Positions 6,289 to 26,700 of a stretch of 27,019 nt of DNA are shown here, in pieces. Position 1 is the first letter of the stretch. Each line of letters begins with the position of its first letter. A program made the translations under genes and the position numbers. The notes under the pieces were generated by a model. That model did not search any database. It worked only from the letters and a program-made list of their open reading frames with translations, and had not been told where the DNA came from. The DNA comes from Promethearchaeota archaeon (GTDB lineage Archaea > Asgardarchaeota > Lokiarchaeia > Sigyniarchaeales > SOKP01), in the NCBI GenBank assembly GCA_016839585.1, contig JAEOTZ010000037.1:1-27019 (forward strand), in the 5' to 3' direction.

Positions 6289-7034
6289 ATAATATTGAAA
6301 CAATTGTTAAAAAAATAAGAAATCTTTTGAAAGAAAACGAACCTACCCTTACTGAAGACCAAAAATCTAGAATGTTTAAAATTATAAATCCAGATATTTC
6401 AAATTATGAAATGTATGGTCTCAAAACTTCTGAAATTGAGAATATTGTAAAGACAGTTTTTAACTCTTATGAATGTAATTATGAGGATGCTGTTGAAATT
6501 TTCAAAGTTTTAATACGCTCAAATAATGAGGGTGAGAAGTTTGCTGCCTTCTTTTTTCTAAATAGATTTAAAAAATTTTTTAATGAAGATACAATCAAGC
6601 TTTTCCAAAGGGAATATTCTAAATATTGTAACACTTGGAGTGTGTGTGATAGCACATGTATAAGAGTTATCGGCCCCTTTTTAGGGAAAAAAGGAAATGA
6701 AGAATTAGCTACAAAAGTGATAGATAAATGGTCTGCTTCCAATGTGATGTGGATTCAACGAGCCTCTATGGTTATTTTGCTTAAAATTGTTATGATGAAA
6801 AGAGACTTCGACAATTCATACGTATTTAATCTTGTTGATAGAATGTTAAAATTTTCTGATCAAAATTATATAGAAAAAGGAATTGGCTGGCTTCTTAAAA
6901 CTTGTTCTAAGTATAATCCGGAATTGATTTATAATTATTTAATGGAAAATAAGGATAAGTTAACATGCTTAATCCTTAGATATGCTAGCGAAAAACTCCC
7001 AAAAGAAAAAAGATCATCAATTTTAATGAAATAA
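6285..7034 (+). CDS. DNA alkylation repair protein (AlkD-like HEAT-repeat family)
   Basis: NTWSVCD, WSASNVMWIQRAS and YIEKGIGWLLK motifs; ATGA overlap with the radical SAM gene. Confidence 0.85.
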   Translation: MNNIETIVKKIRNLLKENEPTLTEDQKSRMFKIINPDISNYEMYGLKTSEIENIVKTVFNSYECNYEDAVEIFKVLIRSNNEGEKFAAFFFLNRFKKFFNEDTIKLFQREYSKYCNTWSVCDSTCIRVIGPFLGKKGNEELATKVIDKWSASNVMWIQRASMVILLKIVMMKRDFDNSYVFNLVDRMLKFSDQNYIEKGIGWLLKTCSKYNPELIYNYLMENKDKLTCLILRYASEKLPKEKRSSILMK

Positions 7035-7045
7035 ACTTTATATGA
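6940..7045 (+). repeat. 106-bp direct repeat, copy 1 (3' end of the AlkD-like gene)
   Basis: Matches 11106-11211 with 6 mismatches and no gaps by manual alignment. Confidence 0.92.
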
Positions 7046-11105: not shown

Positions 11106-11211
11106 TAATGGAGAGTAAGAATAAGTTAACACGCTTAATCCTTAGATATGCTAGCGAAAAACTCCCAAAAGAAAAAAGATCAGCAATTTTAAGGAAATAA
11201 ACTTTATATGA
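11106..11211 (+). repeat. 106-bp direct repeat, copy 2 (orphan 3' fragment of the AlkD-like gene)
   Basis: Encodes MESKNKLTRLILRYASEKLPKEKRSAILRK*; ~94% identical to 6940-7045. Confidence 0.92.
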
Positions 11212-11263: not shown

Positions 11264-11776
11264 TTGAGAATTTACATTCTCGCAGATGAGGGAGTAGGAA
11301 AGCATACTTTATTAAGAGATCAAATCAAGTGTGATAAATTATTTGAAGAGGATCATATGGGAACAGTAGGGGTTCAAATTGAGTCAAAAGACATAATAAT
11401 TAATAAAAAATCGATAAAACTTAGTTTTTTTATGTTAGGGATGAAAGATTATTTTAGCCCATTTTATCGCGCATATTGTCAAGGAGCTGATAGTGCGATA
11501 ATAATGTATGATATTACAAACTCTGAGACTTTAGAGAGAGTTTCTGAATGGATTCAATTGCTAAGAAAAAACTCTGGGGATATTCCCATAATTTTGGTAG
11601 GAAATAAGGTAGATTTAAAAAGCAGAGAAATAACAACCGAGGAAGCAATGAAAATTAAGGATAAATTCAGTTTATCAGGATTTTTTGAAATTTCAGTAAA
11701 AACAGGTGTAAATGTCGAGGAAATGTTCAGAGAAGTAGTACAACTGACATTAAGCAATCGAGGAATAGTTCCTTAA
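11264..11776 (+). CDS. Rab/Ras-like small GTPase with degenerate G1 and G3 motifs
   Basis: ADEGVGKH (G1-like), TVGV (G2), GADSAIIMYDIT, IPIILVGNKVDL (G4) and EISVKTGVNVEEMF (G5). Confidence 0.85.
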   Translation: MRIYILADEGVGKHTLLRDQIKCDKLFEEDHMGTVGVQIESKDIIINKKSIKLSFFMLGMKDYFSPFYRAYCQGADSAIIMYDITNSETLERVSEWIQLLRKNSGDIPIILVGNKVDLKSREITTEEAMKIKDKFSLSGFFEISVKTGVNVEEMFREVVQLTLSNRGIVP

Positions 11777-13148: not shown

Positions 13149-13348
13149 TTGAAAATAAAAGGAGAAACAACATTTTTTGGTGAAAAAATCAACACCCCCG
13201 AAGAATTCATTGAAGACCTATGCGAGAGAATCAACACCGTGTATGTACAGTAATGGAAGAAGATGACAAAATGCACCAACTAGCATACTTAATGGGATTT
13301 CTAACCGCCCTTAAAGGAAGACTAAATCGCGTATGTGAAAATTTATGA
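13149..13348 (+). pseudogene. Small helical protein gene (~66 aa) with a 1-nt frameshift
   Basis: TTG start gives MKIKGETTFFGEKINTPEEFIEDLCERINTVY; after a shift near 13245 it reads TVMEEDDKMHQLAYLMGFLTALKGRLNRVCENL*. A TTTATATA box lies upstream. This reads more like protein than the antisense 62-aa ORF. Confidence 0.6.
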
Positions 13349-13394
13349 ATTTCTCTATTTTGTATTTTTTATTCTTATTTTTCATTTCATTCCT

Positions 13395-13883
13395 TTAATT
13401 CCTTGATTTTAATTGTTCTTTCTTCTTAGCTCTTGAGGTTTTTAAAAAAGCGATTCCTAACCCTACTTCCATAATACCTCCTCCACATGGTCCAACAAGT
13501 CCAATTCCCGGATTTAAGTTATTCCAAATCCCATTGGGGTATAAATTATGATATGTATATTGGTTTAACAACACTAAAAAAACAATTATACCAGCAATGA
13601 TTACAATTCCATAACTTACACACAATTTCCCTATTTTTGTATCATCAATTTGATCTCTTCTATAATAATTTCCTGTTCTTATTAGCATTAATGAAGATAT
13701 AGCAATTATTATCGTTAATAAAATTCCAATCAAAAGAATTATAATATTATCAATAAGTTTGATGGTATTATCTAATCCTCTGTCATATATCAATCCACAT
13801 AACCAAATGCTAAAATTACTATATCTATCAAAGTAAGCTACTGGTACAAAAAGACATATTATGATAAGAACTCCAGTTAACAT
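13395..13883 (-). CDS. Hypothetical membrane protein (about 4 TM)
   Basis: 162-aa ORF with several hydrophobic helices and a basic C-terminus. Confidence 0.7.
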   Translation of the reverse strand: MLTGVLIIICLFVPVAYFDRYSNFSIWLCGLIYDRGLDNTIKLIDNIIILLIGILLTIIIAISSLMLIRTGNYYRRDQIDDTKIGKLCVSYGIVIIAGIIVFLVLLNQYTYHNLYPNGIWNNLNPGIGLVGPCGGGIMEVGLGIAFLKTSRAKKKEQLKSRN

Positions 13884-13958
13884 AACTGATAACCAATTAT
13901 ATTTAGCCCAAGCAACAATAATGAACCACCATTATATTTAATAACAAATTTCTAAATC

Positions 13959-14543
13959 CTATTTTATAGAACTTATTTTCTCTAATATATCAATATCCTT
14001 TGGGACAATGGGAATTCTAATTTCAATTTCTTCCGGATTGTTTCTCAAATGCATTGGTTTTTTTAAAAGTACTTTTATAAGATAATAATCCTTCCTTTCT
14101 AATGATTGTATGCTCTCAATATTTTCTAATGGTATAAAATAGAATTTACCAGAAATCTTCATAATCATCTGCCTATTTGTGAAGATATATTTAGATTTGT
14201 TTAATTTTATTTTGGATAATAAAATTGGAGAAAATATTCCACAAAAAAATAGAAATATTAATGATATAACAATACTAAAGATAAAAAAACCTTCCGAAAT
14301 GAAAAATGATTCTCTCATTCCGAGATATATCAATTCTAAGAAGAATCCTATCACTATACATATCCCTAAAATAATAAACATGAATATTTTAATTAAACTA
14401 AATTTTGGGGAATAATCTATTAACACACTCTCTTCTTTGTTTAAAAAATCTTTAACCTCTTTAGCATTTCTATCTAATATTTTACTTTTATTGATGAACC
14501 CCCATATCATAACATTACACCTAAACAACTCACTCAATTCCAA
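13959..14543 (-). CDS. Hypothetical membrane protein, 2 TM plus PH-like domain; start uncertain
   Basis: TM hairpin followed by YIFTNRQMIM...FIPLENIESI. Confidence 0.7.
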   Translation of the reverse strand: MELSELFRCNVMIWGFINKSKILDRNAKEVKDFLNKEESVLIDYSPKFSLIKIFMFIILGICIVIGFFLELIYLGMRESFFISEGFFIFSIVISLIFLFFCGIFSPILLSKIKLNKSKYIFTNRQMIMKISGKFYFIPLENIESIQSLERKDYYLIKVLLKKPMHLRNNPEEIEIRIPIVPKDIDILEKISSIK

Positions 14544-14725
14544 ATTACAGGTCTTGTTGTACGTCCTGGCTTAATAAAAACATTTTTGACCTTTCTTACT
14601 ACTCGAAGCCATCTACATCCTTGACATCTCTGAACTGAGACATTCTCATTTAATTTATTCGATCTAACACAAACTCTACCTTGACAAACTAAATGACAAC
14701 AATGTATTTCACTCATCTTCTCCAT
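14534..14725 (-). CDS. 63-aa Cys-rich basic protein (possible Zn-binding), intact copy of the repeated unit
   Basis: MEKMSEIHCCHLVCQGRVCVRS...RCQGCRWL...IKPGRTTRPVIWN. The second copy differs without indels and with several conservative substitutions (V/I, R/K, V/L), consistent with coding constraint. Confidence 0.65.
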   Translation of the reverse strand: MEKMSEIHCCHLVCQGRVCVRSNKLNENVSVQRCQGCRWLRVVRKVKNVFIKPGRTTRPVIWN

Positions 14726-14757
14726 AAATAATATATCATCATTCCTTTTAATTTTTA
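14534..14757 (-). repeat. 224-bp repeat unit, copy A (putative promoter + Cys-rich ORF)
   Basis: Aligns without gaps to 19526-19749 with about 22 mismatches (~90% identity). Confidence 0.92.
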
Positions 14758-14948
14758 CAATTTGAGGATAAGATTAACTTTTTAGATACTTAATATTCCC
14801 ACCTCAACATCAAATTCCCTACTTTCCCCACTTTCAAAAAATTTTTTAAGTTATAAACAAGCAACATTTTCAAATTTAAAGAATAAATCTTGATTTTTAA
14901 AATAAAAAATGAAATTGATATATAAATAAAAAATATTTAGTTATAGTT

Positions 14949-15386
14949 ATGGAGCCAAGGAAAAAAAGACGTTTACCCTTTTATATAATTAGTACAATTA
15001 TATTTTTTTTTCTCTTGTTTAACATATATTGGACACTTACGTTAGATAAAGAGTCACCTCTTAGGCAAACAATATTTTTGATTGATGGGAATCTAATGTT
15101 TTCTCTTTTTATAACAGGGCTTGTTGGTTATGTTATAGATAAGAAATTCGAGGCCTCTGATAAGGACAGTGAAGAAAAGAGAAAAATATTTAGAGAATTT
15201 TCAAAATATGAAAAAATTAGCACAATACTAACCATTTTTGGTTGTATTATTATGTCAGTGTCAATTTTAATCGGAGAATATTTATTACTTTCATTAGGTT
15301 CAAATATTTTTACAGATGTTTTTATTATTTTGGAATATGTAGGAATCGGTTTATTATTAATAGGAAGTATTCTAATTTTAAAATAA
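14949..15386 (+). CDS. Hypothetical membrane protein (4 TM)
   Basis: 145-aa ORF with two TM hairpins joined by a charged loop. Confidence 0.7.
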   Translation: MEPRKKRRLPFYIISTIIFFFLLFNIYWTLTLDKESPLRQTIFLIDGNLMFSLFITGLVGYVIDKKFEASDKDSEEKRKIFREFSKYEKISTILTIFGCIIMSVSILIGEYLLLSLGSNIFTDVFIILEYVGIGLLLIGSILILK

Positions 15387-15456
15387 TATTTGTGTTATTA
15401 ACTGGGAATAGTGTATCACAATTTTATTGAGAAATTGGGTAAAAATCAATTACTAG

Positions 15457-16356
15457 TTATTTTATTAATTTGTTTTTAGGAAATCTTTTTGATAATTTCT
15501 TCTCTCTGGCATCTCGTATTGATTCACTTATCATTGGAAATAAAACTATGGATAAAACAGAAGAGCTGATTGTTATTAATATAAATGTGAATATAAAAAT
15601 GGAATAAATATCATCAAATGTTGTTATAGATATGAGAAACATGACAAGTGATAACAATATCAGAATTAGTACATAAATTAAACAAAAATCTATACCTTTT
15701 TTATAATCATTTCTATTTAATTTTATTAATTCATAATCGGGAATCTCGTTTTTTTCAAAAATATTTCCATTACTAAATTCATTTTCTATTATTTGAATTA
15801 TGCAATTTTGTATTAAATTGTTATAACTAATATTAATTGTTAATTTTCCTATATCGCAATCAATAATTTCATTATTTTTACAGGTCGATAAATATAGTTC
15901 ATTATAAATAGAAGATTTTCTGATATTGATATCAGAACATGATATTAGATCTAAGAAACTAATTTTACATACTTCAATTGTTATATTTTGGCATTTATAC
16001 AAAATTACTGAACTAAGGGTACATTTTCGAATAGTGATATGAGATTTTAGTTTTTTCAATTTAAACGGTTCTGGGAAATGTTCTATAGATTCAATAATAA
16101 TTGGATTATCAATACTTCCTTCTCCTCTAAATTCAGATAAATTATATGTATCTTTCTGTTTAAATACCATAAAAAAAGATATCACGATTGAAAATATCCC
16201 AAACCATAGAGAAATTAAACCTAACCAAATAGGGATTATGATTAAGAATTTATACACATTACTTAATAATAAAAAAATAACAAATAATATCACTAAAAAG
16301 CCCTCAATAATTATTAGTGAGTTTGTTAAGTTAAATTTAGGATATCTTCTTTTCAT
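15457..16356 (-). CDS. Membrane protein with a right-handed beta-helix (NosD-like) domain
   Basis: Two TM at each end; GEGSIDNPIII motif followed by repeated C-x-N-I-x-I-x-x-C units. Confidence 0.72.
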   Translation of the reverse strand: MKRRYPKFNLTNSLIIIEGFLVILFVIFLLLSNVYKFLIIIPIWLGLISLWFGIFSIVISFFMVFKQKDTYNLSEFRGEGSIDNPIIIESIEHFPEPFKLKKLKSHITIRKCTLSSVILYKCQNITIEVCKISFLDLISCSDINIRKSSIYNELYLSTCKNNEIIDCDIGKLTINISYNNLIQNCIIQIIENEFSNGNIFEKNEIPDYELIKLNRNDYKKGIDFCLIYVLILILLSLVMFLISITTFDDIYSIFIFTFILITISSSVLSIVLFPMISESIRDAREKKLSKRFPKNKLIK

Positions 16357-16438
16357 TTATGCAGTCTCAACCACCTGACTCTTTTAAAAATCTAAAGTTT
16401 ATATCTTTTGTCAAAATTGATTGGTCCTTTTAATACTT

Positions 16439-17221
16439 TTATAAAATTTCGTACCCTCTTTTATAAGTATATGGATTTCTTTTTGCCTTTATATATGTTA
16501 TTATACTCCAAATATTGCCAATAACCCAAATAGCTATTATAAATAATAAAGATATTAATAATCCAAAAATATTACTTTCTTCTAATTCGATATATAATAA
16601 AATAAAAGATGTAGCTAGCCATAAACATGTGATATTAATTAAAATAACTGTTTTTTTAAAATGCACTTTAAATATTAATTTTTTATCTAAGAATTCTGAG
16701 ATTAAAGTTCCTAGGCGATCAAACCCTCCAATAATTGATTCCCTATAGATTTTAATCTTTTTCTTATTTTTTAAAATAAACGATAGATAATGCGGATTGC
16801 CAGTTAAATGTACCTCCTCACTAACATGTAATATATATTCAATCTCATTCATATTAATATGCTTAATTTGATTTCTTTTTTTTGATTTTTTTTGCTTTGT
16901 AATAATATTGGTTTCTCTATCAATATACCATTCTATAGGTTTACGATTAGATAGATAATAAGAGAAATCATTCAAAAATGCACCTAAGAACAATATTGAA
17001 ATAGAGGAAAAAAATATAGTGCTTGCAAAAGGATTATTAAAATAGTTCTGGATTAATAATATAATTAAAGTTATTAAAGTTATTAAAAATAAAGAAAAAC
17101 AACAGAATGGTATTTTTAAACCTGAATACTTATCGTTGGATTTATCAATTTGGATTCTAAGAATATTATCATCTTGCAATACAGAACAATTGGAATTTAT
17201 TCTTATCTTATTATCTTTCAT
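16439..17221 (-). CDS. Hypothetical membrane protein, TM hairpin + PH-like segment + TM hairpin
   Basis: 260-aa ORF with WYIDRETNIIT...INMNEIEYI between hydrophobic pairs. Confidence 0.7.
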   Translation of the reverse strand: MKDNKIRINSNCSVLQDDNILRIQIDKSNDKYSGLKIPFCCFSLFLITLITLIILLIQNYFNNPFASTIFFSSISILFLGAFLNDFSYYLSNRKPIEWYIDRETNIITKQKKSKKRNQIKHINMNEIEYILHVSEEVHLTGNPHYLSFILKNKKKIKIYRESIIGGFDRLGTLISEFLDKKLIFKVHFKKTVILINITCLWLATSFILLYIELEESNIFGLLISLLFIIAIWVIGNIWSIITYIKAKRNPYTYKRGYEIL

Positions 17222-17261
17222 ACTTTTATTATAACTTGATTTAATCCTTCAATCATAAACT

Positions 17262-17336
17262 CAATGTATTTCACTCATCTTCTCCATAAATAATAAATTA
17301 TCATTCCTTTTAATTTTTAATTGATACAATCGAAGA
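17262..17336 (-). repeat. Repeat unit copy C (promoter and first 8 codons only)
   Basis: caatgtatttcactcatcttctccataaataataaattatcattccttttaatttttaattgata..atcgaaga matches 14700-14757 and 19692-19764. Confidence 0.88.
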
Positions 17337-17485
17337 AAAATATAATCAAAGAAGAACTTCTTCCAAATAATTAATTTTTTTCATATTAAGGACTAAAAAG
17401 ATTTTTATGAGATTCTATACTTTAATCTCTATCTTATTAAGGATTAAATTTTATATTTAATTTAAAAATAAGATAAAACACCAGT

Positions 17486-17675
17486 GCCAAGGTATGGCCA
17501 AAGCCATTGTGCGGTAAAGGTGGCGTAGCAGATTTTCATTTTCTGAAGATCCGCGAAACCCGGGAAGGTATTAATTGAAAATTATTGCCCCTAACGCACT
17601 AGACTGAAGTGTAGAGTTTCATTCAAACCGTTCTCAGTTATCTAGGTATCGAGGGTTCAAATCCCTCCCTTGGCA
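17486..17675 (+). tRNA. tRNA-Phe: tRNA-Phe(GAA) containing four predicted introns
   Basis: Exons 17486-17490, 17519-17528, 17559-17566, 17595-17609 and 17640-17675 join to GCCAAGG TG GCGT AGCCCGGGA ACGC A CTAGA CTGAAGA TCTAG GTATC GAGGG TTCAAAT CCCTC CCTTGGC A (74 nt). All four stems pair perfectly, and U8, A14, G15-C48, G18G19, U33 and TTC are present. CCA is not encoded. Confidence 0.92.
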
Positions 17676-17684
17676 ATTGATGAA

Positions 17685-18416
17685 TTAAGTCCATCTCTGT
17701 TTTAAATCCTCTATTATTTTTCTCCCGTAAAAGTTCAGTTGTTTTTTCCGTTCTTTAGTTAATCCTGTGTAATCATCACTATAAGTCAACATCTTTTCAA
17801 TTTCTTTAATAAGAGATTCATTACTCACATTATAACCATGTTTGACGCACAAATTCTTTAAGAGATCTCTGTATTCATAAGAATAATTAACCCTTTTATC
17901 AGGGTATAACTCATGTAATTTCTTTTCTATTTTCACTCGTTTCTCAGGATCACTGATACTCTTTAATACTAATCCAAAAGTTTTAGCACGATATTCCCAC
18001 TTTTTAGGTTTTACCTTATACAAAAATTTGCTTACATTGCCTTTAGCTTCTAATCCTGTATTAAAAGTATCTCTTGCTTTGGTAGGAGAGATTTTGACAG
18101 TTTCAATATCATTAGCTCTACAAAGGTTTTTAAAATCTTCTACTAATGGAAACGAGGCGTTATTAAAACTAATATGGAGCGTCTTATTATGTTTATGAAT
18201 ATGTATGGAACCATCAGTATCTACTAATCCCCTTAAACCCTCAATCTGGAACTGTCCATTTTGTTTAATCACCTGAGGTACTTCAACTTGGTTTTTCTTC
18301 TTATCTCCTGGCTTATGACCTTTGTCAATTAAGCTTTCAATAATATTTTTTGGATGAATTTTAAACTTAATAGCATCTGCTTTTTTTGGTTCATATATAC
18401 TAGGTCTCCTTCTCAT
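17685..18416 (-). CDS. LAGLIDADG-family (intein/DOD-type) homing endonuclease-like protein, probably N-terminally truncated
   Basis: VEVPQVI...GLRGLVDTDGSI...ISFNNASFPLVEDFKNL resembles the second motif of two-motif LAGLIDADG enzymes. No first motif and no intein splice residues are visible, and the start overlaps the upstream gene. Confidence 0.78.
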   Translation of the reverse strand: MRRRPSIYEPKKADAIKFKIHPKNIIESLIDKGHKPGDKKKNQVEVPQVIKQNGQFQIEGLRGLVDTDGSIHIHKHNKTLHISFNNASFPLVEDFKNLCRANDIETVKISPTKARDTFNTGLEAKGNVSKFLYKVKPKKWEYRAKTFGLVLKSISDPEKRVKIEKKLHELYPDKRVNYSYEYRDLLKNLCVKHGYNVSNESLIKEIEKMLTYSDDYTGLTKERKKQLNFYGRKIIEDLKQRWT

Positions 18417-19395
18417 TTTTTAAGACTTTGATTTGGTTTAAAGCATTTTCACTTATTTTCTGGTATCTACTATTCTTTAAGTTAATCGTTCCCTCATATC
18501 CCTTATATAAATCAATTTCTTTAATATCCGAATTTTCGATGGATGTATCTTGACAAGCACCAAATTTTAATACATTTATTGAAACGAAATTCATTTCTAT
18601 ATCTGAACAAAATTTTAAATTACATGATTTTGAGATGTTATAGCTTTCTAAAGTTATATGTTTCGTATCATATAACGCTATTTTCTTTAAATCGAGGTTT
18701 TTAAAGATAACGAAATGTCTATTATGATAAAAAGTTAAATCTTTTACTTTTGCTTTTTTGATATTGTGACTATCAATTATGATCGGATCACTTTTAGTTC
18801 CCATTCCTCTACACTCAATCTCCTTTAAAACATTTCCGTGGAATAAACTAAATGTAGAAATAGAAAATGATTCAGTTGGTTCCTTTAATGGTTTTTGAAT
18901 TTCTAAGATCTCGTCAATCCAAGGATGATCAATATTCTCAAGATAATTTCCCCTACTTAAATTATCTGAATCAAAAAATATATCCCAATAACAGTTTTTA
19001 AATGTGTTATTATAGCATTTGTATAGTTTAAATTCCGTATCGAATTTTGAATCTTTTAATAGACAGTTTCGACATACGATGAGATTTATAAAATTAATTT
19101 CAGAGCTGTCAATCGTTATATTAATACAATTATATAAAAATGAAGATCTGAAGATACAGTTTTTCATAGTAATATTTTTACAATACCCTAATACTAGAGA
19201 ATTAAGGCGACAATTTTCAATAATTATAAACCTTTCAGATTCCAATATTTCAAAATTATTAGGGATACTCGATGAAGAATCAATTATGAAAGGATCTTCC
19301 TTAATACCAGTTCCTCTGCATTCCACTTCAAATTCTTCAAATTTTAAAGGTTCTCCGCTATGTTTATACGTGCCTTTTCTTAATTTTATTTTCAT
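18400..19395 (-). CDS. Beta-helix/solenoid repeat protein with an internal domain duplication
   Basis: EVECRGTGIKEDPFIIDS and EIECRGMGTKSDPIIIDS each open a run of C-x-N-I-T-x-x-N-C repeats; related in motif to 15457-16356. Confidence 0.75.
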   Translation of the reverse strand: MKIKLRKGTYKHSGEPLKFEEFEVECRGTGIKEDPFIIDSSSSIPNNFEILESERFIIIENCRLNSLVLGYCKNITMKNCIFRSSFLYNCINITIDSSEINFINLIVCRNCLLKDSKFDTEFKLYKCYNNTFKNCYWDIFFDSDNLSRGNYLENIDHPWIDEILEIQKPLKEPTESFSISTFSLFHGNVLKEIECRGMGTKSDPIIIDSHNIKKAKVKDLTFYHNRHFVIFKNLDLKKIALYDTKHITLESYNISKSCNLKFCSDIEMNFVSINVLKFGACQDTSIENSDIKEIDLYKGYEGTINLKNSRYQKISENALNQIKVLKNEKET

Positions 19396-19525
19396 AATGA
19401 ATTCTTTTCTTTACACTTTTAATTTTCTTTAATTATAAGAATAGTATATACTCTGATTAATTATGACCTCTTCCTCTTAAAACAGCTCTAAATTCTATAT
19501 TAGTCATATATATCTTTGTAATCAT

Positions 19526-19749
19526 TCAATTCCAAATTACAGGTCCCGTCGTACGTCCTGGCTTAATAAATACATTTTTGACCTCTTTTAATACTCGAAG
19601 CCATCTACATTATTGACATCTCTGAATTGAGACTTTCTCTTTTAATTTATTCGATCTAACACAAGTTTTACCTTGACAAATTAAAAAACAAAAATGTCTT
19701 TCACTCATCTTCTCCATAAATAATAAATCAGCATTCCTTTTAATTTTTA
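19526..19749 (-). repeat. 224-bp repeat unit, copy B (Cys-rich ORF 19526-19717 with an internal TAA; pseudogene)
   Basis: Translates MEKMSERHFCFLICQGKTCVRSNKLKEKVSIQRCQ*CRWLRVLKEVKNVFIKPGRTTGPVIWN; GGA of copy A is TAA here. Confidence 0.9.
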
Positions 19750-19903
19750 ATTGATAATCGAAGATAGAAGCTGAACATTTAACGTTCGTTTATAACAAAC
19801 GCTAAAACCTCTAAAATAATTTTTAATAGGTTATTTAAATGTTTTGAAGGGAGCAATCAGATTTAAAAATAGTATTTCTCTTATATAGATTGAAAAAACT
19901 AAA

Positions 19904-20677
19904 ATGAATGACTTAAAAAAGAATTTTCCAGAGGATTTAAAAACTGTAGTTGAAGATTGGAAATCTGGGAATTACATTCCTAAAAAGATTCAAGATATTT
20001 ATGATATTTTTAAAAATGTTAATCATGGCAAAACTTTTTTCATTAAATATGCGGAACAACAACCTAAGGGAGATCTAAAGTTTGGACTGAGTTTATTAAC
20101 AATACCCCTATTTTTCACTGCTTGGGTATATATATACTGTTTTGTTATATATATAACAGTATCCTCATATTATCTATTTTTGATTGTTCTACCCTGGATA
20201 TGGGGTATTCCATGTCCTACCGCATTTTTTCGCCTTTTATGTAATAGAAGACAAGAAATAATGAAGAAACATGGATATATTACCATTAATCCCAGAGGTG
20301 TTTTATATCGTTATTCACATAAAAAATTCGGATATTTTACTTGGAGTTCAATTGTATCCATTAAGGAAGGTGAAAATATTAATTATAAACATTATGGTAA
20401 GTATATTCATTACCAGTTAAAACCTCAAAAACTTACGGCTGAAAAGCGAAAATATACTCATTTAATTCGGTATGACAACATTGATACCACAGAAATTGCT
20501 TCCATAAAATTTTTTTATGAATTAGTTAACCGCTATTGGAAAAAATATCGAGATTTCAGCCCACCAAACTCTAAAATCCCAACTCCTTATGTCAGTGATG
20601 ATCTTATGTTTATAATAATGATGATTGGATTTTCCTTTATTCCAATTGATTTTATTTTATTATTATTTCTTATATAA
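19904..20677 (+). CDS. Hypothetical membrane protein, TM hairpin + PH-like domain + C-terminal TM
   Basis: GYITINPRGVLYR...FTWSSIVSIK follows two TM helices. Confidence 0.72.
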   Translation: MNDLKKNFPEDLKTVVEDWKSGNYIPKKIQDIYDIFKNVNHGKTFFIKYAEQQPKGDLKFGLSLLTIPLFFTAWVYIYCFVIYITVSSYYLFLIVLPWIWGIPCPTAFFRLLCNRRQEIMKKHGYITINPRGVLYRYSHKKFGYFTWSSIVSIKEGENINYKHYGKYIHYQLKPQKLTAEKRKYTHLIRYDNIDTTEIASIKFFYELVNRYWKKYRDFSPPNSKIPTPYVSDDLMFIIMMIGFSFIPIDFILLLFLI

Positions 20678-20775
20678 AAAGAACAAAATGATATTACTAA
20701 AGATCGCTTTTCAAAAGTAAAGGTGTAGCTTAAGCGGAGCGAGAAGGTTTGAGATGAGAAGGGATGGAGTATGAG

Positions 20776-20809
20776 TTAGATTTTGAGCTAGATTAGATTT
20801 TGAGCTAGA
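20776..20809. repeat. 17-bp tandem repeat, two copies
   Basis: TTAGATTTTGAGCTAGA occurs twice, intergenic between convergent genes. Confidence 0.8.
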
Positions 20810-20897
20810 TTTTATTTAATTTTTTCTAACTAATAGAAAAAGGATCTATTCTTAATTTTTAAATATTCAACAAAACCGATAATAAAAATGTTGAAAG

Positions 20898-22460
20898 CTA
20901 TTTTTTTCTAAGGTATTTTCTGATTGTAATAACGAGAAACAGAGAAACAAACAAACCTATGCTAAAAAGTGAATATAATGAATACCCGAAAATAGCTTTA
21001 TCATCCCCATATATATGGACTTCTACCATAAGACAGTTTGAACTAAGACTATATTTTTCATTTTGTGCTAAGATAAGGTAATAATAAATCCCATTTGTTA
21101 GATTAGCTATTGAAAAACTTCTTGAGTACTTTACATCCAAAATGTTCACTGTGTTATTAATTTGTGTTATAGAGCTATTGTAAGTATAAATAGTGTAATT
21201 GTCTGCGTTTCCAGGATCTTCCCAAGTTAAAGTAAAATTTCCATCAATATCGGGAGTCCCTGCATCCGTTGTTAGATTAAACGGTGATAATTCGATATTA
21301 TTATATAGTAATGTTATTCTCCCATTTTCTCCTCCCAAAGCCAAATAAATTCCATCATAATTATATGCTGAAGTACTGATATCTTCTCCAAGATTATGAG
21401 ATCCTGCACTTGTTAAACGATCATCGGAAATTCTTTTTCTAATTTTCATATTATCAAAATCATTTAAATAAGCGATGTATCTTCCATTACCACTAACAGC
21501 AGAATTAAACCTGGAAGTACCCCACGTATAACTGTTTGTACTTATTGTAGATCCGTCAAAATTACATATTCGTACTCTTGTCGGTTCATATAAACCCCAT
21601 TGATTTGCAAACACGATTGTTTTCCCGTTCCTTGACATTTCCATTGCATAAATCACACCAAGACCATAGTATAAATAACCAATGGTTCTACTCCATATCG
21701 GTGTTGAATCGGCTCTATTAAACATATACCCATATTCTTTTCCTGCACCACAGATATAATTGCCGTCCATGGTTACTCTTGTATAAAGAATATCAAGACT
21801 TTGGTTAGACCAAAGTAGATCTCCCGTGCGATTTAATACACAGATTTGACCATCTAATCCAGTGCCATATCCTCCCGCTACAATTGTATTAGCATCATAG
21901 GAAATATCGACGCTTACAACTATACCTACGGCCTTATAACTCCACATAGGGCCAGTCAAGTCGAATAAATGAATGTATCCATCAGCAGTCCCTGCTACGA
22001 GATATTTATTATTTACAGAAAAATCTATAGCAGTTATACTATCTCCTATGTCATAATTCCATAATGGATTTGAAGTTGTTGTATTAAATAACAAAACTCT
22101 CCCATTATCACAACCCGCAACACAATACGTACCATTAGGAGAGATTGATACTGATATTACCGGACTTCCCGTATCCCTAGTCCAAATTGGCTCGGAACTT
22201 GTGTTATTAAATAAAATTGCTTTATTATCATAATTTCCAGCAAAAAGATAGAATCCATCATCAGAAAGTGCCAAGGATCTGATTTCATCAGCAGTGTCTT
22301 TTGTCCAAACAATTTCTTGAGTTGATATCTTTGGATAAGAATAAACCTCTATTTCTCCATAATTACTCTTTCTGTCATAAGAAAATGGTGTTTCGAAACA
22401 ACTAGAAAGCACCGATATTACAAAAACTAATAATATAAATGAAATTTTGATTCTTTTCAT
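20898..22460 (-). CDS. Secreted, membrane-anchored WD40/PQQ-like beta-propeller surface protein with a Loki-CTERM-like C-terminus
   Basis: N-terminal signal peptide; repeated blades (PIWT..VISVSISPNG.Y.VAG); FN3-like region (DGNFTLTW...NGIYYY); C-terminal IFGY + TM + RKYLRKK. Confidence 0.88.
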   Translation of the reverse strand: MKRIKISFILLVFVISVLSSCFETPFSYDRKSNYGEIEVYSYPKISTQEIVWTKDTADEIRSLALSDDGFYLFAGNYDNKAILFNNTSSEPIWTRDTGSPVISVSISPNGTYCVAGCDNGRVLLFNTTTSNPLWNYDIGDSITAIDFSVNNKYLVAGTADGYIHLFDLTGPMWSYKAVGIVVSVDISYDANTIVAGGYGTGLDGQICVLNRTGDLLWSNQSLDILYTRVTMDGNYICGAGKEYGYMFNRADSTPIWSRTIGYLYYGLGVIYAMEMSRNGKTIVFANQWGLYEPTRVRICNFDGSTISTNSYTWGTSRFNSAVSGNGRYIAYLNDFDNMKIRKRISDDRLTSAGSHNLGEDISTSAYNYDGIYLALGGENGRITLLYNNIELSPFNLTTDAGTPDIDGNFTLTWEDPGNADNYTIYTYNSSITQINNTVNILDVKYSRSFSIANLTNGIYYYLILAQNEKYSLSSNCLMVEVHIYGDDKAIFGYSLYSLFSIGLFVSLFLVITIRKYLRKK

Positions 22461-22600
22461 AATGAATTCTCACTGCTTTTGTATTTATTTGAAGATTCTT
22501 GTGTTATATTTATCATTATTATATCTACCTTTATAAAAACATCGCTACATCACTTTATTAAAACAAGTGAAGGTTACGTAATAATCAAACAAACAAGTTT

Positions 22601-22864
22601 TTATGCGATATTTCTGGGGTTTTTAACGGATATTCTACCTTTCTTTTTAATATATTCAATATTTCTAGCATAAATTTTTTCATGGTTTTCAATACGCTTT
22701 GCATTAACTAATAGATTGATTCCCATAATTAAAAAAATAAAAAAGAGTATTACATTTCCAAATCGGAAGATATTGTAACAACCGCCATTAAATCCTTGTA
22801 AGAAGTTGATGAAAAATTCTTGAAAATCTTCTAACGGATTAGGAATTTGAAATAATGGCATCAT
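22601..22864 (-). CDS. Small membrane protein, possibly C-terminally truncated
   Basis: 87-aa ORF with one TM helix. Confidence 0.45.
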   Translation of the reverse strand: MMPLFQIPNPLEDFQEFFINFLQGFNGGCYNIFRFGNVILFFIFLIMGINLLVNAKRIENHEKIYARNIEYIKKKGRISVKNPRNIA

Positions 22865-23043
22865 AAAATGATTTTAGCAAAACTATAAAAAATCATAGAA
22901 AATTTAGCTTTAAATTTGTAATAATTCTTATAAAATGAGTTACATTTCCTTCTTCTGACATCATTTTTAATGAATTCACTGAATTCCTCGTTATCTTCAT
23001 CAATAAATTCCCAAAATTCTTCATACATATCTTTTAAAGTCAT
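22861..23043 (-). pseudogene. Orphan 3' fragment duplicated from the gene at 26006-26524
   Basis: MTLKDMYEEFWEFIDEDNEEFSEFIKNDVRRRK versus MTLKELYEEFWEFIDDDNEEFSEFIKGDVRRRK. DNA 22937-23044 versus 26016-26123 shows 8 mismatches in 108 bp. Confidence 0.85.
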
Positions 23044-23112
23044 TATTACTATCCTTGCTGTTTTTCCTTTTTATCAGCTGATAAACCTATATATTTTGGT
23101 TTCTTTAAATAG

Positions 23113-23790
23113 ATGAGAGTCAGAAACCATCAGAATTTAACAATCACTAAATTTTTTAAATCATTGAAGCATATATTCTCCACAATAACGATTCCAAATT
23201 TAAATTATAGTATTTTGGTGATTGATATTTTTAATTTATTAAAATGTGTTAGATGCGGTTCTGAAAATGTATTTGACAAACAATTTCATCTGAAATTAGA
23301 AGATAGCATAATGGTGCCTGTAGCAAGGGGTGTACGTATTACGGGAAAAAGATTACATATAGATCTTTCAGTTTGTAAGAATTGTTATGATGGATTTCAC
23401 AAGGCGAACAATCTAATGCAATTAAGTATGGCACTTTCCGTATTAGGAATGTGTCTGATTATACCAGGATTATTTTTTCTTTTTGGAAAAAATCCAATAT
23501 CTATTCTATTTTTCATTCCATTACCTACAGGTATTATATTAAGAATAAAAAACCGATTTAGTGAATTTTTTCCAGGAAAATTCTTCTCTTTTAAATATAG
23601 CATATTCCGTTTGAAACCGTTAACTGCTCCAGACTGGATTCGCTATGAAGATTGGGTTATCTCTGTGTTACAAGAAAAAGGTCATATAGAAATACTTGAG
23701 AAAGAAGAAGAAAAGGAGGATTGTCCTAATTGTAATTTAGCTCGTAAGATTAACCAATCAAAATGCCCTTGGTGTGGTAAAAACTTATAA
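23113..23790 (+). CDS. Zinc-ribbon membrane protein; true start probably further downstream
   Basis: CVRCG...VCKNC, two TM, and C-terminal CPNC...CPWCG. Confidence 0.75.
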   Translation: MRVRNHQNLTITKFFKSLKHIFSTITIPNLNYSILVIDIFNLLKCVRCGSENVFDKQFHLKLEDSIMVPVARGVRITGKRLHIDLSVCKNCYDGFHKANNLMQLSMALSVLGMCLIIPGLFFLFGKNPISILFFIPLPTGIILRIKNRFSEFFPGKFFSFKYSIFRLKPLTAPDWIRYEDWVISVLQEKGHIEILEKEEEKEDCPNCNLARKINQSKCPWCGKNL

Positions 23791-23811
23791 AGTATTAGAT
23801 ACTAATTAGAT

Positions 23812-24591
23812 ATGTTTAATAAAAATAATTCAGGGATATATATGGATAATTCCAATACTCGTAATCCTCTTGAAGAATTGTCTAAATATGAAAAAGAGTT
23901 AGACATTGCTAAAAATTCAGATAATATATCAGAAATTTTTCATTGTTTATTAAATCTAGGAAATCTTTGTAATGAAATTGAAGCAGATGAGTTAGGTTTT
24001 AAATATGTTCAAGGAGCAATAGAGCTTAGTAAAAAACATTCTGATTTTCCACATCTTTATGAGTTTTACAATTTATTAGGGGATTTCAATTTTAAACAAG
24101 GTTTGTTAAAAGAGGCACACGACGCATATAAAAGATCTAAAAAAATGTTACCCAAAAAAGAGAATTTAAAACTACGTGCAGAAATTAATTTTAAATTGGG
24201 TAGAATGAGTGAAATTTCAAATAATAAAAATATAGTTATAGGACACTACAGAAATGCAAAAAAAATATATGAAAAATTAGGATTACATGCAGAAGTAGCT
24301 AAATGCTTAAATAGATTGGGGTTGATTTATTTTAAAAAATTACCTCATGAAGATGAAATAAGAGATAAATATACAGGCACAGTAATGGATACTGCTTCAT
24401 TGATAATAGATACTGCTTCATTTATAAAAAATAAAGCAGATGTTGCTATGGCAAAGAAATATTTTGAAAATGCGATTATGATCTTAGAGCAAAATAATTT
24501 AACAGAAGTAGAGAGTGAATTATACAAGTCAATCAAAGTCTATTTGAACGCAAAAGCTTTTAAGAAAAAAAAAGAAAGCAGAAGCTTTTAA
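23812..24591 (+). CDS. Tetratricopeptide-repeat protein
   Basis: Repeated helical motifs LLNLGNL, YNLLGDFNFKQG...A..AY, CLNRLGLIY and AKKYFENAI. Confidence 0.8.
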   Translation: MFNKNNSGIYMDNSNTRNPLEELSKYEKELDIAKNSDNISEIFHCLLNLGNLCNEIEADELGFKYVQGAIELSKKHSDFPHLYEFYNLLGDFNFKQGLLKEAHDAYKRSKKMLPKKENLKLRAEINFKLGRMSEISNNKNIVIGHYRNAKKIYEKLGLHAEVAKCLNRLGLIYFKKLPHEDEIRDKYTGTVMDTASLIIDTASFIKNKADVAMAKKYFENAIMILEQNNLTEVESELYKSIKVYLNAKAFKKKKESRSF

Positions 24592-24633
24592 GAGTATTGA
24601 TGTATATTGCAACTCAATGCTTTTTCTTCTCAA

Positions 24634-25089
24634 TTAATTTTTACTTTTTTTCTCTAAATTTTCTCCACATTGGGAGCAAATATTGTATCCAGGTGACAAT
24701 TTTGCTCCACATTTAGGGCATATATCTTTTTTCCTCTTACTTTTAAATCTTATTCTCCCACCGCTTGAAAGTCCAGCAACTAAAAGTGTTATATTACTTA
24801 AAATCCATGAAATCAGTATGCTATTATCATATAGATTATTCAATGATAAATTGTAGTAAAAAGAAAATAAAGCTATAGGGAGGATGCCTACACCTGCAAA
24901 AATGAAAAAAACTAATGCTTGATCTATATTATCGTTATAATTACAAATAATTCCTGCAATTATTAAACCAATTGCAACAAATCCTAAGAGAAGGTCTTCC
25001 GTGCTCTTTTTATCTATTAATTGTAAAATGACTGAAAAACTAAGAAATAAGAGACTTACAATGGCCAAATACATTGATTTCTTTAACAT
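24634..25089 (-). CDS. Membrane protein (4 TM) with a C-terminal double zinc ribbon
   Basis: CPKCGAKLSPGYNICSQCGENL follows the hydrophobic helices. Confidence 0.78.
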   Translation of the reverse strand: MLKKSMYLAIVSLLFLSFSVILQLIDKKSTEDLLLGFVAIGLIIAGIICNYNDNIDQALVFFIFAGVGILPIALFSFYYNLSLNNLYDNSILISWILSNITLLVAGLSSGGRIRFKSKRKKDICPKCGAKLSPGYNICSQCGENLEKKSKN

Positions 25090-25243
25090 TTTATCGACTT
25101 AAATTCTATTGGTTTCATTTTATTAAGAACTATATTAATTACTATGCTTAGTCCATATTTAAATATACTAGGTTATTAATACCTATAGCAAGGACATAGT
25201 TTTTCAAAGAATTTTTCTTTCCCTTCCAGATATCAATAGATAA

Positions 25244-25906
25244 TTACATTAATTCCATTTTGAAGTTATATTTTAATTTTTTTAATCCATTCAGTAAGAG
25301 ATTTAAATTGCTTTTTAGATTATTTTCCTTTATCAATTCAGCTTTAACCAATAAAAGTTTAAGATAATTAGTATTATGAGACGATTGAGTCATAATTGAA
25401 TTTATAAGGCTTATACAATGTTTAATTATAATATCTTCAGAGAGGTCAATATCAGTTTTAGAGCCCTTATTAAAAAAGTCTTCAATGTTAGAGAAATCTT
25501 GCATATTGATTTCCCGATTAGAAGTAATATTAACCATCATTTCTTTAATTTGGTTGCCAATTTTTTTCATTTTATCTAAGAAAATTACATTTCCCTCATT
25601 TCTAAGTATTAAGATTATAAAACCAATATTTTCTACTTCAGACAATATATAGATATAATCATGATTTTGTATAACTGTAGTATTATAGGAACCATTTGAT
25701 ATTTCTGCATTAAATTGTTCTAAAGCAAAAAGTAAAGAACTTCCAGTTGGTCCTATAATTTCAGGAGCAATTTTTAAATCGGTATTAGAACAATTTGATA
25801 TAGGTAGACCATCATTATTAAAGATAAATGAAGAAATAAACGCGTCCCCAAAAATGGTCTTCACTCCTTTTAGAAGATTATCTAAATTATCTTGAATATT
25901 ACTCAT
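25244..25906 (-). CDS. Roadblock/LC7-like domain protein
   Basis: SSFIFNNDGLPIS, then a helix (IIGPTGSSLL..LEQFNAEI) and beta strands (TTVIQ..YIYIL..FIILIL), typical of the roadblock fold. Confidence 0.65.
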   Translation of the reverse strand: MSNIQDNLDNLLKGVKTIFGDAFISSFIFNNDGLPISNCSNTDLKIAPEIIGPTGSSLLFALEQFNAEISNGSYNTTVIQNHDYIYILSEVENIGFIILILRNEGNVIFLDKMKKIGNQIKEMMVNITSNREINMQDFSNIEDFFNKGSKTDIDLSEDIIIKHCISLINSIMTQSSHNTNYLKLLLVKAELIKENNLKSNLNLLLNGLKKLKYNFKMELM

Positions 25907-26005
25907 TTAACTAACACAAGATTTTACACTTTTAATTATATATTTCAATTTGATTTTTTAAAGTACTTTCTTTTAAGACAAAGGATCTTAAATTGCCATA
26001 AAATT

Positions 26006-26524
26006 TTAACAAAAAGAGTTATATTTCCTTCTTCTGACATCACCTTTAATGAATTCACTGAATTCCTCGTTATCATCATCGATAAATTCCCAAAATTCTT
26101 CATACAATTCCTTTAAAGTCATTTCTTTCTTTTCTTGATTATTGTTATTTTGAATTTTCGATTCTCTTGGTTTATATTCAAGGTAATTTCCCTCCATGAT
26201 TAGATTTTCAAAAAGATCATCGTCTGAATCATTAAAATCTTTAAATTCACTATTTTGATTTTCAACTTTGTTATTTTCAAATTCAAAATCTACTTTTTGG
26301 TACCCTCGTACGTTAAGATTTTTATCAACAAATGCTTGAAATTGGTGTTGGCAAACCAATCCTTTTGCTATTGACATTGTAGTTAGCTGTTTTGCTTGAT
26401 TGATGACTGATTTAGGAACCTTTAACACTTTCTTGGACTTACAGGCGGGGCAAATAAATTGGATCTTTATATATTCATGTAAATTAGCTATATTGACATT
26501 ACTTCTATTTTTTGTAATAGCCAT
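26006..26524 (-). CDS. Hypothetical Zn-binding protein (CxxC...CxH; FVDKN..VRGYQ motif)
   Basis: FICPACK...GLVCQHQFQAFVDKNLNVRGYQKVDF with an acidic/aromatic C-terminal motif. Confidence 0.78.
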   Translation of the reverse strand: MAITKNRSNVNIANLHEYIKIQFICPACKSKKVLKVPKSVINQAKQLTTMSIAKGLVCQHQFQAFVDKNLNVRGYQKVDFEFENNKVENQNSEFKDFNDSDDDLFENLIMEGNYLEYKPRESKIQNNNNQEKKEMTLKELYEEFWEFIDDDNEEFSEFIKGDVRRRKYNSFC

Positions 26525-26700
26525 ATCACTCTCTTTAAACTATTTCAAATTATAAATAAAAAGTCCAATATTCTTCTTGGAGAAATTGAATTTATATAAA
26601 TTTAGATCTAATAGGTTTAAATAAGAACTTTACTTAAATGTAAATTATACAGTTATATAATTTGGTATAATTGTAAAATTTTAAAAATTGGGTGAAATAT

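Follow-up and report, generated by a model that had tools for sequence, protein, structure and literature searches.

A four-intron tRNA-Phe gene in a Lokiarchaeial genome, adjoined by a truncated LAGLIDADG homing endonuclease gene

Some bulge-helix-bulge (BHB) introns of archaeal rRNA genes encode LAGLIDADG enzymes of the I-DmoI type, and in the collaborative homing of cyanophage S-PM2 the free-standing endonuclease F-CphI lies beside psbA, which carries an ORF-less intron. In tRNA genes of the Thermoproteales, up to three introns per gene have, to our knowledge, been reported. For Asgard archaea, Valentin-Alvarado 2024 (PMC11291895, Supp. Data 4) lists four introns in the Arg-TCT, Ile2-CAT and Leu-GAG genes of Freyarchaeia and in the Trp-CCA gene of Atabeyarchaeia-2, with 92-95% of the tRNA genes containing introns (PMC11291895). 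Goswami 2026 (bioRxiv 10.64898/2026.10.13.758758) describes genes with as many as five intervening sequences, gives a miss rate of 30% for tRNAscan-SE, chiefly in the D arm, finds no enrichment of mobile elements within 5 kb of intron gains, and leaves open how Asgard tRNA introns arrive and turn over. The gene described here is a further example of this trait, now from a Loki lineage.

The window analysed is the whole of a 27-kb contig (C20) of a draft genome of 3.45 Mb in 91 contigs (29% G+C), estimated to be 99% complete with 2.2% contamination. Removal of four introns from a 190-nt locus (table 1) leaves a 74-nt product, ending in ...TTGGCA, that ARAGORN calls as tRNA-Phe(GAA) and in which all four stems are fully paired. 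The anticodon GAA lies in a 7-nt loop (CTGAAGA) with U33 and a purine at position 37, the discriminator is A73, and the product is orthologous to tRNA-Phe of related genomes. A split-tRNA solver anchored on the T arm and permitting BHB-type jumps ranks the four-intron solution first. The unspliced locus, on the other hand, receives no call from ARAGORN with the intron option on or off, and it stays under the Rfam tRNA gathering threshold, with a partial match of only 19.4 bits. The first-pass annotation of this DNA had described the collapse of the locus to a fully paired 74-nt cloverleaf and predicted that standard tRNA finders would probably miss or mis-call it; the coordinates and sequences that it gave are exact, and the prediction is borne out. 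The TATA-like box is placed as expected of archaeal promoters and would imply a short 5' leader. Judging from the sequence, we regard the locus with high confidence as a functional tRNA-Phe(GAA) gene, the only one found in this Lokiarchaeial genome, whose four introns would be cut by the splicing endonuclease EndA and whose exons would be joined by RtcB.

Table 1. Features of the tRNA-Phe(GAA) locus and its immediate surroundings in the window.
Feature	Position	Strand	Description
upstream flank	17358-17485	+	orthologous to G056: 90% identity over 136 nt, extending into tRNA nucleotide 8
TATA-like box	17450-17457	+	TTTATATT, about 30 nt 5' of the tRNA start; read from the sequence
tRNA-Phe(GAA) locus	17486-17675	+	five exons and four introns
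exon 1	17486-17490	+	5 nt, GCCAA, tRNA positions 1-5
intron 1	17491-17518	+	28 nt, position 5/6
exon 2	17519-17528	+	10 nt, GGTGGCGTAG, positions 6-15
intron 2	17529-17558	+	30 nt, position 15/16
exon 3	17559-17566	+	8 nt, CCCGGGAA, D-loop
intron 3	17567-17594	+	28 nt, position 22/23
exon 4	17595-17609	+	15 nt, CGCACTAGACTGAAG, contains anticodon GAA
intron 4	17610-17639	+	30 nt, canonical position 37/38
exon 5	17640-17675	+	36 nt: 3' strand of the anticodon stem, variable loop, T arm, 3' strand of the acceptor, discriminator A
8.3-kb block	17676-25995		absent from the close relative G043 (blastn and tblastn of the G043 locus against the window)
LAGLIDADG homing endonuclease gene	17685-18416	-	5'-truncated, 243 aa, Pfam LAGLIDADG_3

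The published BHB geometry has a central helix of four pairs, formed by the exon nucleotides that precede the 5' bulge and the intron nucleotides that precede the 3' bulge. Introns 1 and 4 show this helix with all four pairs: TGCC/GGTA (one pair being G-U) in intron 1, where both bulges read AAG and the inner hairpin has 6 bp, and CTGA/TCAG in intron 4, a strict hBHB with AGT and TTA bulges whose 5-bp outer helix is the anticodon stem. Introns 2 (GCGT/GCGA) and 3 (CGGG/CCCT) are relaxed BHB motifs with 3/4 pairs; the inner helix comprises 7 to 8 bp and begins one pair in for the former, and comprises 3+5 bp for the latter. At least one flanking helix accompanies the central helix in every case, and the helices as we recomputed them are identical to those originally proposed, including the division into two complete and two relaxed motifs. 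Altogether the four central helices contain 14 of 16 possible pairs, a total reached in 2 of 20000 intron shuffles, and placements of 28 or 30 nt at random in the window yield 4/4 pairs in 2.5% and at least 3/4 pairs in 17% of cases. The proposed boundaries give the best BHB fit among all shifts that leave the product unchanged. For intron 1 there are six of them, a consequence of the 5-nt direct repeat AAGGT at its two ends (17489-17493 and 17517-17521).

Folded without constraints, the precursor is more stable than shuffled sequences (z = -3.05) and contains the acceptor, the T arm, the intron 1 hairpin and an extended anticodon helix. The first bases of intron 1, GGT, mimic tRNA positions 6-8, and the unspliced precursor can form a 7-bp acceptor-like helix in which the first two G of the intron replace G6 and G7; this helix competes with the BHB motif of intron 1. 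The central helix of that motif draws on leader nucleotide -1, which suggests that the intron would be cut before the 5' end is trimmed by RNase P.

The machinery expected to process such a precursor is encoded in the genome. There are two EndA paralogues of about 200 aa each, encoded in the regions C2:77426-77650 and C39:1832-2080. The alpha paralogue most resembles the subunits that carry out catalysis in the heterotetrameric EndA of Aeropyrum (3P1Z_B, 3AJV_B), Sulfolobus and Pyrobaculum, with 3P1Z_B as its best structural match by sequence; its relatives are labelled as Promethearchaeota or Promethearchaeia MAGs, names that denote Lokiarchaeia. It keeps the catalytic Tyr, His and Lys and has an inserted specificity loop with K59 aligned to K44 of A. 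pernix, and the beta paralogue is devoid of the catalytic His. According to Kaneta et al. (PMC5829648), this loop, which TACK and Asgard archaea have conserved, confers broad substrate specificity together with its lysine. These features support a host EndA of the alpha-beta, broad-specificity type bearing the crenarchaeal-specific loop (CSL), in agreement with the broad-specificity enzyme that the first-pass annotation had postulated from the introns. A gene for the RtcB ligase is located at C7:4311-5618 (PF01139 match of 560 bits).

The following route of processing can be envisaged. A precursor of about 200 nt with a short leader would probably be transcribed from the TATA-type promoter, and each intron would form its own hairpin and pair its 3' part with the last four exon nucleotides ahead of the 5' splice site to create the BHB motif. 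The heterotetramer-type EndA, comprising catalytic alpha and non-catalytic beta subunits, would cut both bulges of each motif, intron 1 presumably being released ahead of leader removal by RNase P, and RtcB would then ligate the five exons into the 74-nt tRNA. We infer both splicing itself and this order of the cuts.

An orthologue of the mature 74-mer is present in 45 of the 53 other genomes of the genus; that of the close relative G057 was not found. Three species (G050, G051 and G001) have an uninterrupted gene that is identical at 68-70 of the 74 positions and scores 65 bits with the Rfam tRNA model. The existence of these intron-free orthologues means that the four inserts can be defined without recourse to any splicing motif, and indeed, spliced alignment to the three genes, using no such motif, returns the same four insertions. 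Extended to 33 species, motif-free spliced alignment finds no insertion in three species, one in six, two in 12, three in 10 and four in two, and a further species with four introns (G056) was added later, bringing the sample to 34. One essential gene of 74 nt thus has zero to four introns within a single genus, at eight sites (linear positions 5, 15, 20, 23, 31, 38, 52 and 59/60). The central helix has at least 3/4 pairs in 65 of the 68 motif-free insertions in the genus; the three remaining look like alignment slips. The mature tRNA-Phe is always 74 nt long in the 34 species, in 15 distinct sequences, and shows compensatory double changes at five of 21 stem pairs, with standard pairs in 313 of 315 cells. 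The constant length and the compensatory changes therefore indicate that the exons are under selection as a tRNA.

The individual introns differ in their distribution. Homologues of intron 2 occur in G024, G002, G014 and G042, and its hairpin shows compensatory changes. Those of intron 3, in G024 and G002, have a perfect CGGG/CCCG helix with 4/4 pairs, and the mismatch in the genome studied here is therefore a recent point change. Intron 4, at 37/38, is common to this genome and G024 only in the genus sample. As for intron 1, no copy with three or fewer mismatches exists in 54 genomes of the genus, and a search for paralogues of all four introns in their own genome with blastn-short returned only chance AT-rich matches; transposition from another tRNA gene is thus unsupported. 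We also considered that intron 1, which holds GCCAAAG and GCCATTGTGCGGTA, might have arisen when part of the 5' end of the tRNA was duplicated, and rejected this as the similarity is too weak.

The first-pass annotation had considered four introns exceptional. Four- and five-intron tRNAs have been published from Asgard archaea in 2024 and 2026, respectively, so any claim of a record falls. Further four-intron tRNA-Phe genes exist in G017 (L009), in G056 (L166) and in a metagenome contig (L172), all with other sets of sites: 20, 31, 52 and 60 in G017 and G056, and 15, 31, about 50-52 and about 59-60 in L172.

The gene immediately behind tRNA-Phe belongs to a LAGLIDADG family. It is oriented tail-to-tail with the tRNA gene, from which it is separated by 9 nt, and opens the 8.3-kb block listed in table 1. 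The ORF keeps motif 2 (LRGLVDTDGS) and has no motif 1, hence not the two motifs of a monomeric LAGLIDADG enzyme; no match to motif 1 (IGLGDGS) and to the 60 or more N-terminal residues of its relatives was found in the window. Full-length relatives have 303-420 aa and both motifs, and they align only from residue about 61-176 onward, the ORF corresponding to the C-terminal 243 residues of the family (84% to P0003). It is thus a member of the family by descent and, to judge from the missing motif, probably inactive. Members of the family lie tail-to-tail with tRNA-Phe, 9-80 nt behind it, in all eight loci with a readable flank (the present one, G023 (= L169), L172, L173, L174, L175, L176 and L184), and G024 retains a remnant of 74 residues. 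The closest relative (84%, L174) has as its neighbour an allele containing the 37/38 intron, which is rare elsewhere. There is no single intron position common to all endonuclease-linked alleles, so a relationship in which an intron confers immunity is unsupported; the narrower idea of an anticodon-arm intron as immunity in every such allele fails on L184, which has none.

The sequences flanking the tRNA gene have different affinities. The upstream flank (130 nt) is 89% identical to that of G056 and 77% to that of G024, and the downstream flank (60 nt) is 73% identical to that of G024, its 55% identity to G056 being at noise level. In G043 the orthologue of ORF 26006-26524 is only 14 nt away from the 3' end of the tRNA, and synteny with this relative resumes past the 8.3-kb block, with 91.6% nucleotide identity at 25996-26604. 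Flank synteny was also tried as a species marker and discarded, the downstream ORF being common to G023 and G024 only.

Several other rearrangements are apparent around the locus. A direct repeat of 122 nt (90% identical; 22923-23044 and 26002-26123) corresponds to the 3' end of ORF 26006-26524. Its two copies enclose about 3 kb with ORFs 23113-25906 and look like the scar left by a second insertion at the same place behind tRNA-Phe. On the other side, a block of about 4 kb (13374-17357), ending 128 nt before the tRNA, is absent from G056, where the matches to 13265-13373 and 17358-17493 adjoin; of its five ORFs, four have no Pfam match and one has a weak sub-threshold match. A 64-nt sequence occurs three times (14701-14764, 17263-17326 and 19693-19756; 88-95% identical; see also 14530-14757 and 19522-19749), each copy just upstream of a minus-strand ORF (13959-14543, 16439-17221 and 18400-19395), which may mean that these ORFs have a promoter or leader in common or that the copies form a small repeat family. 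Another direct repeat, of 106 nt (94% identical; 6940-7045 and 11106-11211), is also found just upstream of the tRNA-Phe of G043 (L165 1655-1835), and copying or relocation of this intergenic piece has thus taken place around the locus. Typical of Asgard genomes is a gene for a small GTPase of the Ras family (11264-11776; Pfam Ras, 106 bits), which is 5.7 kb away from tRNA-Phe here and adjoins it in G056.

How did this set of introns come about? Species relationships were judged here from two proteins (RtcB and EndA alpha) and from local synteny. By the proteins, G043, G056 and G057 are nearest (94-96% identity), other species of the genus showing 79-85%. In G043 tRNA-Phe is interrupted at 20 and 31, and in G056 at 20, 31, 52 and 60, in no case at a site used by the gene studied here; its three older introns, at 15, 23 and 38, are instead homologous to those of G024 (73-87% identical), a species whose proteins are 79-82% identical. 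We prefer, as an unproven explanation, that recombination, perhaps driven by the endonuclease, put a foreign allele in the place of the resident one. Our more specific proposal, which is possible but decidedly tentative, is that the whole set was swapped in one step, when a LAGLIDADG cassette arrived from a distant congener and the donor tRNA gene with its introns was copied over the resident one. After entry of the cassette, repair would have copied the donor introns (15/16, 22/23 and 37/38) over the resident ones (20/21, 30/31 and others), and copying would have halted near the tRNA 5' end, the site of the unique 5/6 intron. If this is true, gene conversion driven by homing endonucleases would be a route by which ORF-less tRNA mini-introns pass between species. 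The claim of replacement is limited by the modest identity of the shared introns (73-87%) by the broken state of the endonuclease copy and by the lack of an intron position shared among all alleles linked to the endonuclease; no source of intron 1 was found in its own genome or the 54 genomes of the genus, and no donor allele among the sampled genomes.

The main competitor concerns the origin of the introns only, and not the identity of the gene. An ancestor of the genus may have had introns at most of the eight sites, with differential loss thereafter and the endonuclease as a coincidental neighbour. Introns at the same site are, indeed, homologous across several species, and the intron-free alleles show that losses occur. 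Moreover, the exons resemble those of close kin (they are one base pair from G056), and the introns shared with G024 are so diverged, at 73-87% identity, that a transfer would have been not recent or from an unsampled donor. Yet none of the 4+4 sites (or 4+2) is shared with G056 or G043 in spite of 94-96% protein identity, which would require about eight losses in a short time. Vertical inheritance, moreover, leaves aside that the downstream flank and three introns match G024 (79-82%) while the upstream flank matches G056, and that an endonuclease remnant is present both here and in G024. We consider vertical inheritance unlikely, without dismissing it, and keep allele replacement as the preferred reading.

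A more radical doubt is that the locus might be a tRNA pseudogene, full of insertions and in decay, with phenylalanine codons being decoded through another gene that is unassembled or unrecognised. One could point to the silence of the standard finders at the locus and to the rearranged region with insertions on both sides, as well as to a tRNA census in which about a quarter of the expected genes are unresolved. This census, anchored on T arms, contains one Phe gene among about 33 solved tRNAs, with about 46 expected, and the solver mis-solves some genes whose introns fail its BHB filter. Only 24 tRNAs lie above the Rfam cut-off in this 99%-complete genome, from which it follows that many genes escape recognition and that the census falls short of the full set; standard tRNA finders evidently under-call such genomes, and about one in four of the expected tRNA genes is still hidden, probably behind T-arm or multiple introns. 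No second Phe-like locus was found in the assembly, however, either in the census or by a blastn-short search with the mature sequence, which matches only T arms of other tRNAs, and no other GAA anticodon arm occurs in a tRNA-like context, the three further matches being AT-rich and in a non-tRNA context. The ARAGORN 'tRNA-Phe' at C87:56208-56343 proved to be a misinterpretation of a tRNA that has several introns and the anticodon CAT (Met or Ile2 type); it directly follows another tRNA (C87:56090-56192). As only about 33 of about 46 tRNAs were solved, a very divergent second tRNA-Phe is no more than unlikely. Nor does the gene itself look decayed, as its exons are unchanged outside compensatory stem pairs, being the same as those of G017, G049 and G056 but for one base pair, and all four inserts lie at BHB motifs. 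We therefore judge the pseudogene explanation highly improbable and retain the functional gene.

It is even less credible that the mosaic locus is a chimera of metagenome assembly, in which two Loki populations were joined at the conserved tRNA exons: such exons are plausible switch points and the draft has 91 contigs with an estimated contamination of 2.2%, but two switches would be needed, since the contig returns to synteny with G043, the 122-nt repeat marks real insertion scars, and the four-intron structure is independent of the flanks. Just as implausible is a gene with three introns, in which a single intron of 55 nt (17532-17586) replaces introns 2 and 3 and leaves a 12-nt D-loop; the split-tRNA solver scores it only 0.3 points under the four-intron solution, but it deletes most of exon 3, which is contiguous with its neighbours in every orthologue, the intron-free ones included, and destroys the conserved AGCCCGGGA D-loop with G18G19.

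The gene with four introns thus shares with the published Asgard tRNAs the presence of several short (about 20-30 nt) BHB introns per gene, many of them non-canonical, including in the D arm, and its host shares with the published ones two EndA paralogues and a standard annotation that misses many introns. The lineage here is Lokiarchaeia (Promethearchaeota), a name absent from the main text of Goswami 2026, and unlike in the published cases a single gene was followed here over 34 species. A further difference is that no link to mobile elements was seen by Goswami 2026, whereas the present locus abuts a homing-endonuclease remnant; its intron set also disagrees with how the genomes are related. 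Together, the intron set and the adjoining remnant hint at a clue to the movement of tRNA introns between species. With tRNA-Phe as the constant site at which a family of homing endonucleases docks, the arrival and turnover of such introns can be addressed in a concrete and testable case.

The Thermoproteales with their multi-intron tRNA genes (Sugahara 2008; Fujishima 2010) resemble this lineage in having non-canonical BHB introns at many positions and an alpha-beta EndA with the crenarchaeal-specific loop. They differ in that related introns recur across their tRNA genes, pointing to transposition, whereas the four introns studied here have no paralogues, as reported for Asgard archaea by Goswami 2026.

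The comparison with collaborative homing cuts both ways. The endonuclease of the present locus has lost its first catalytic motif and is probably dead, and no single intron position is shared by all the alleles linked to the family. The resemblance lies in the association of a LAGLIDADG family with one particular RNA gene whose introns are ORF-less, the gene and the endonuclease appearing to travel together.
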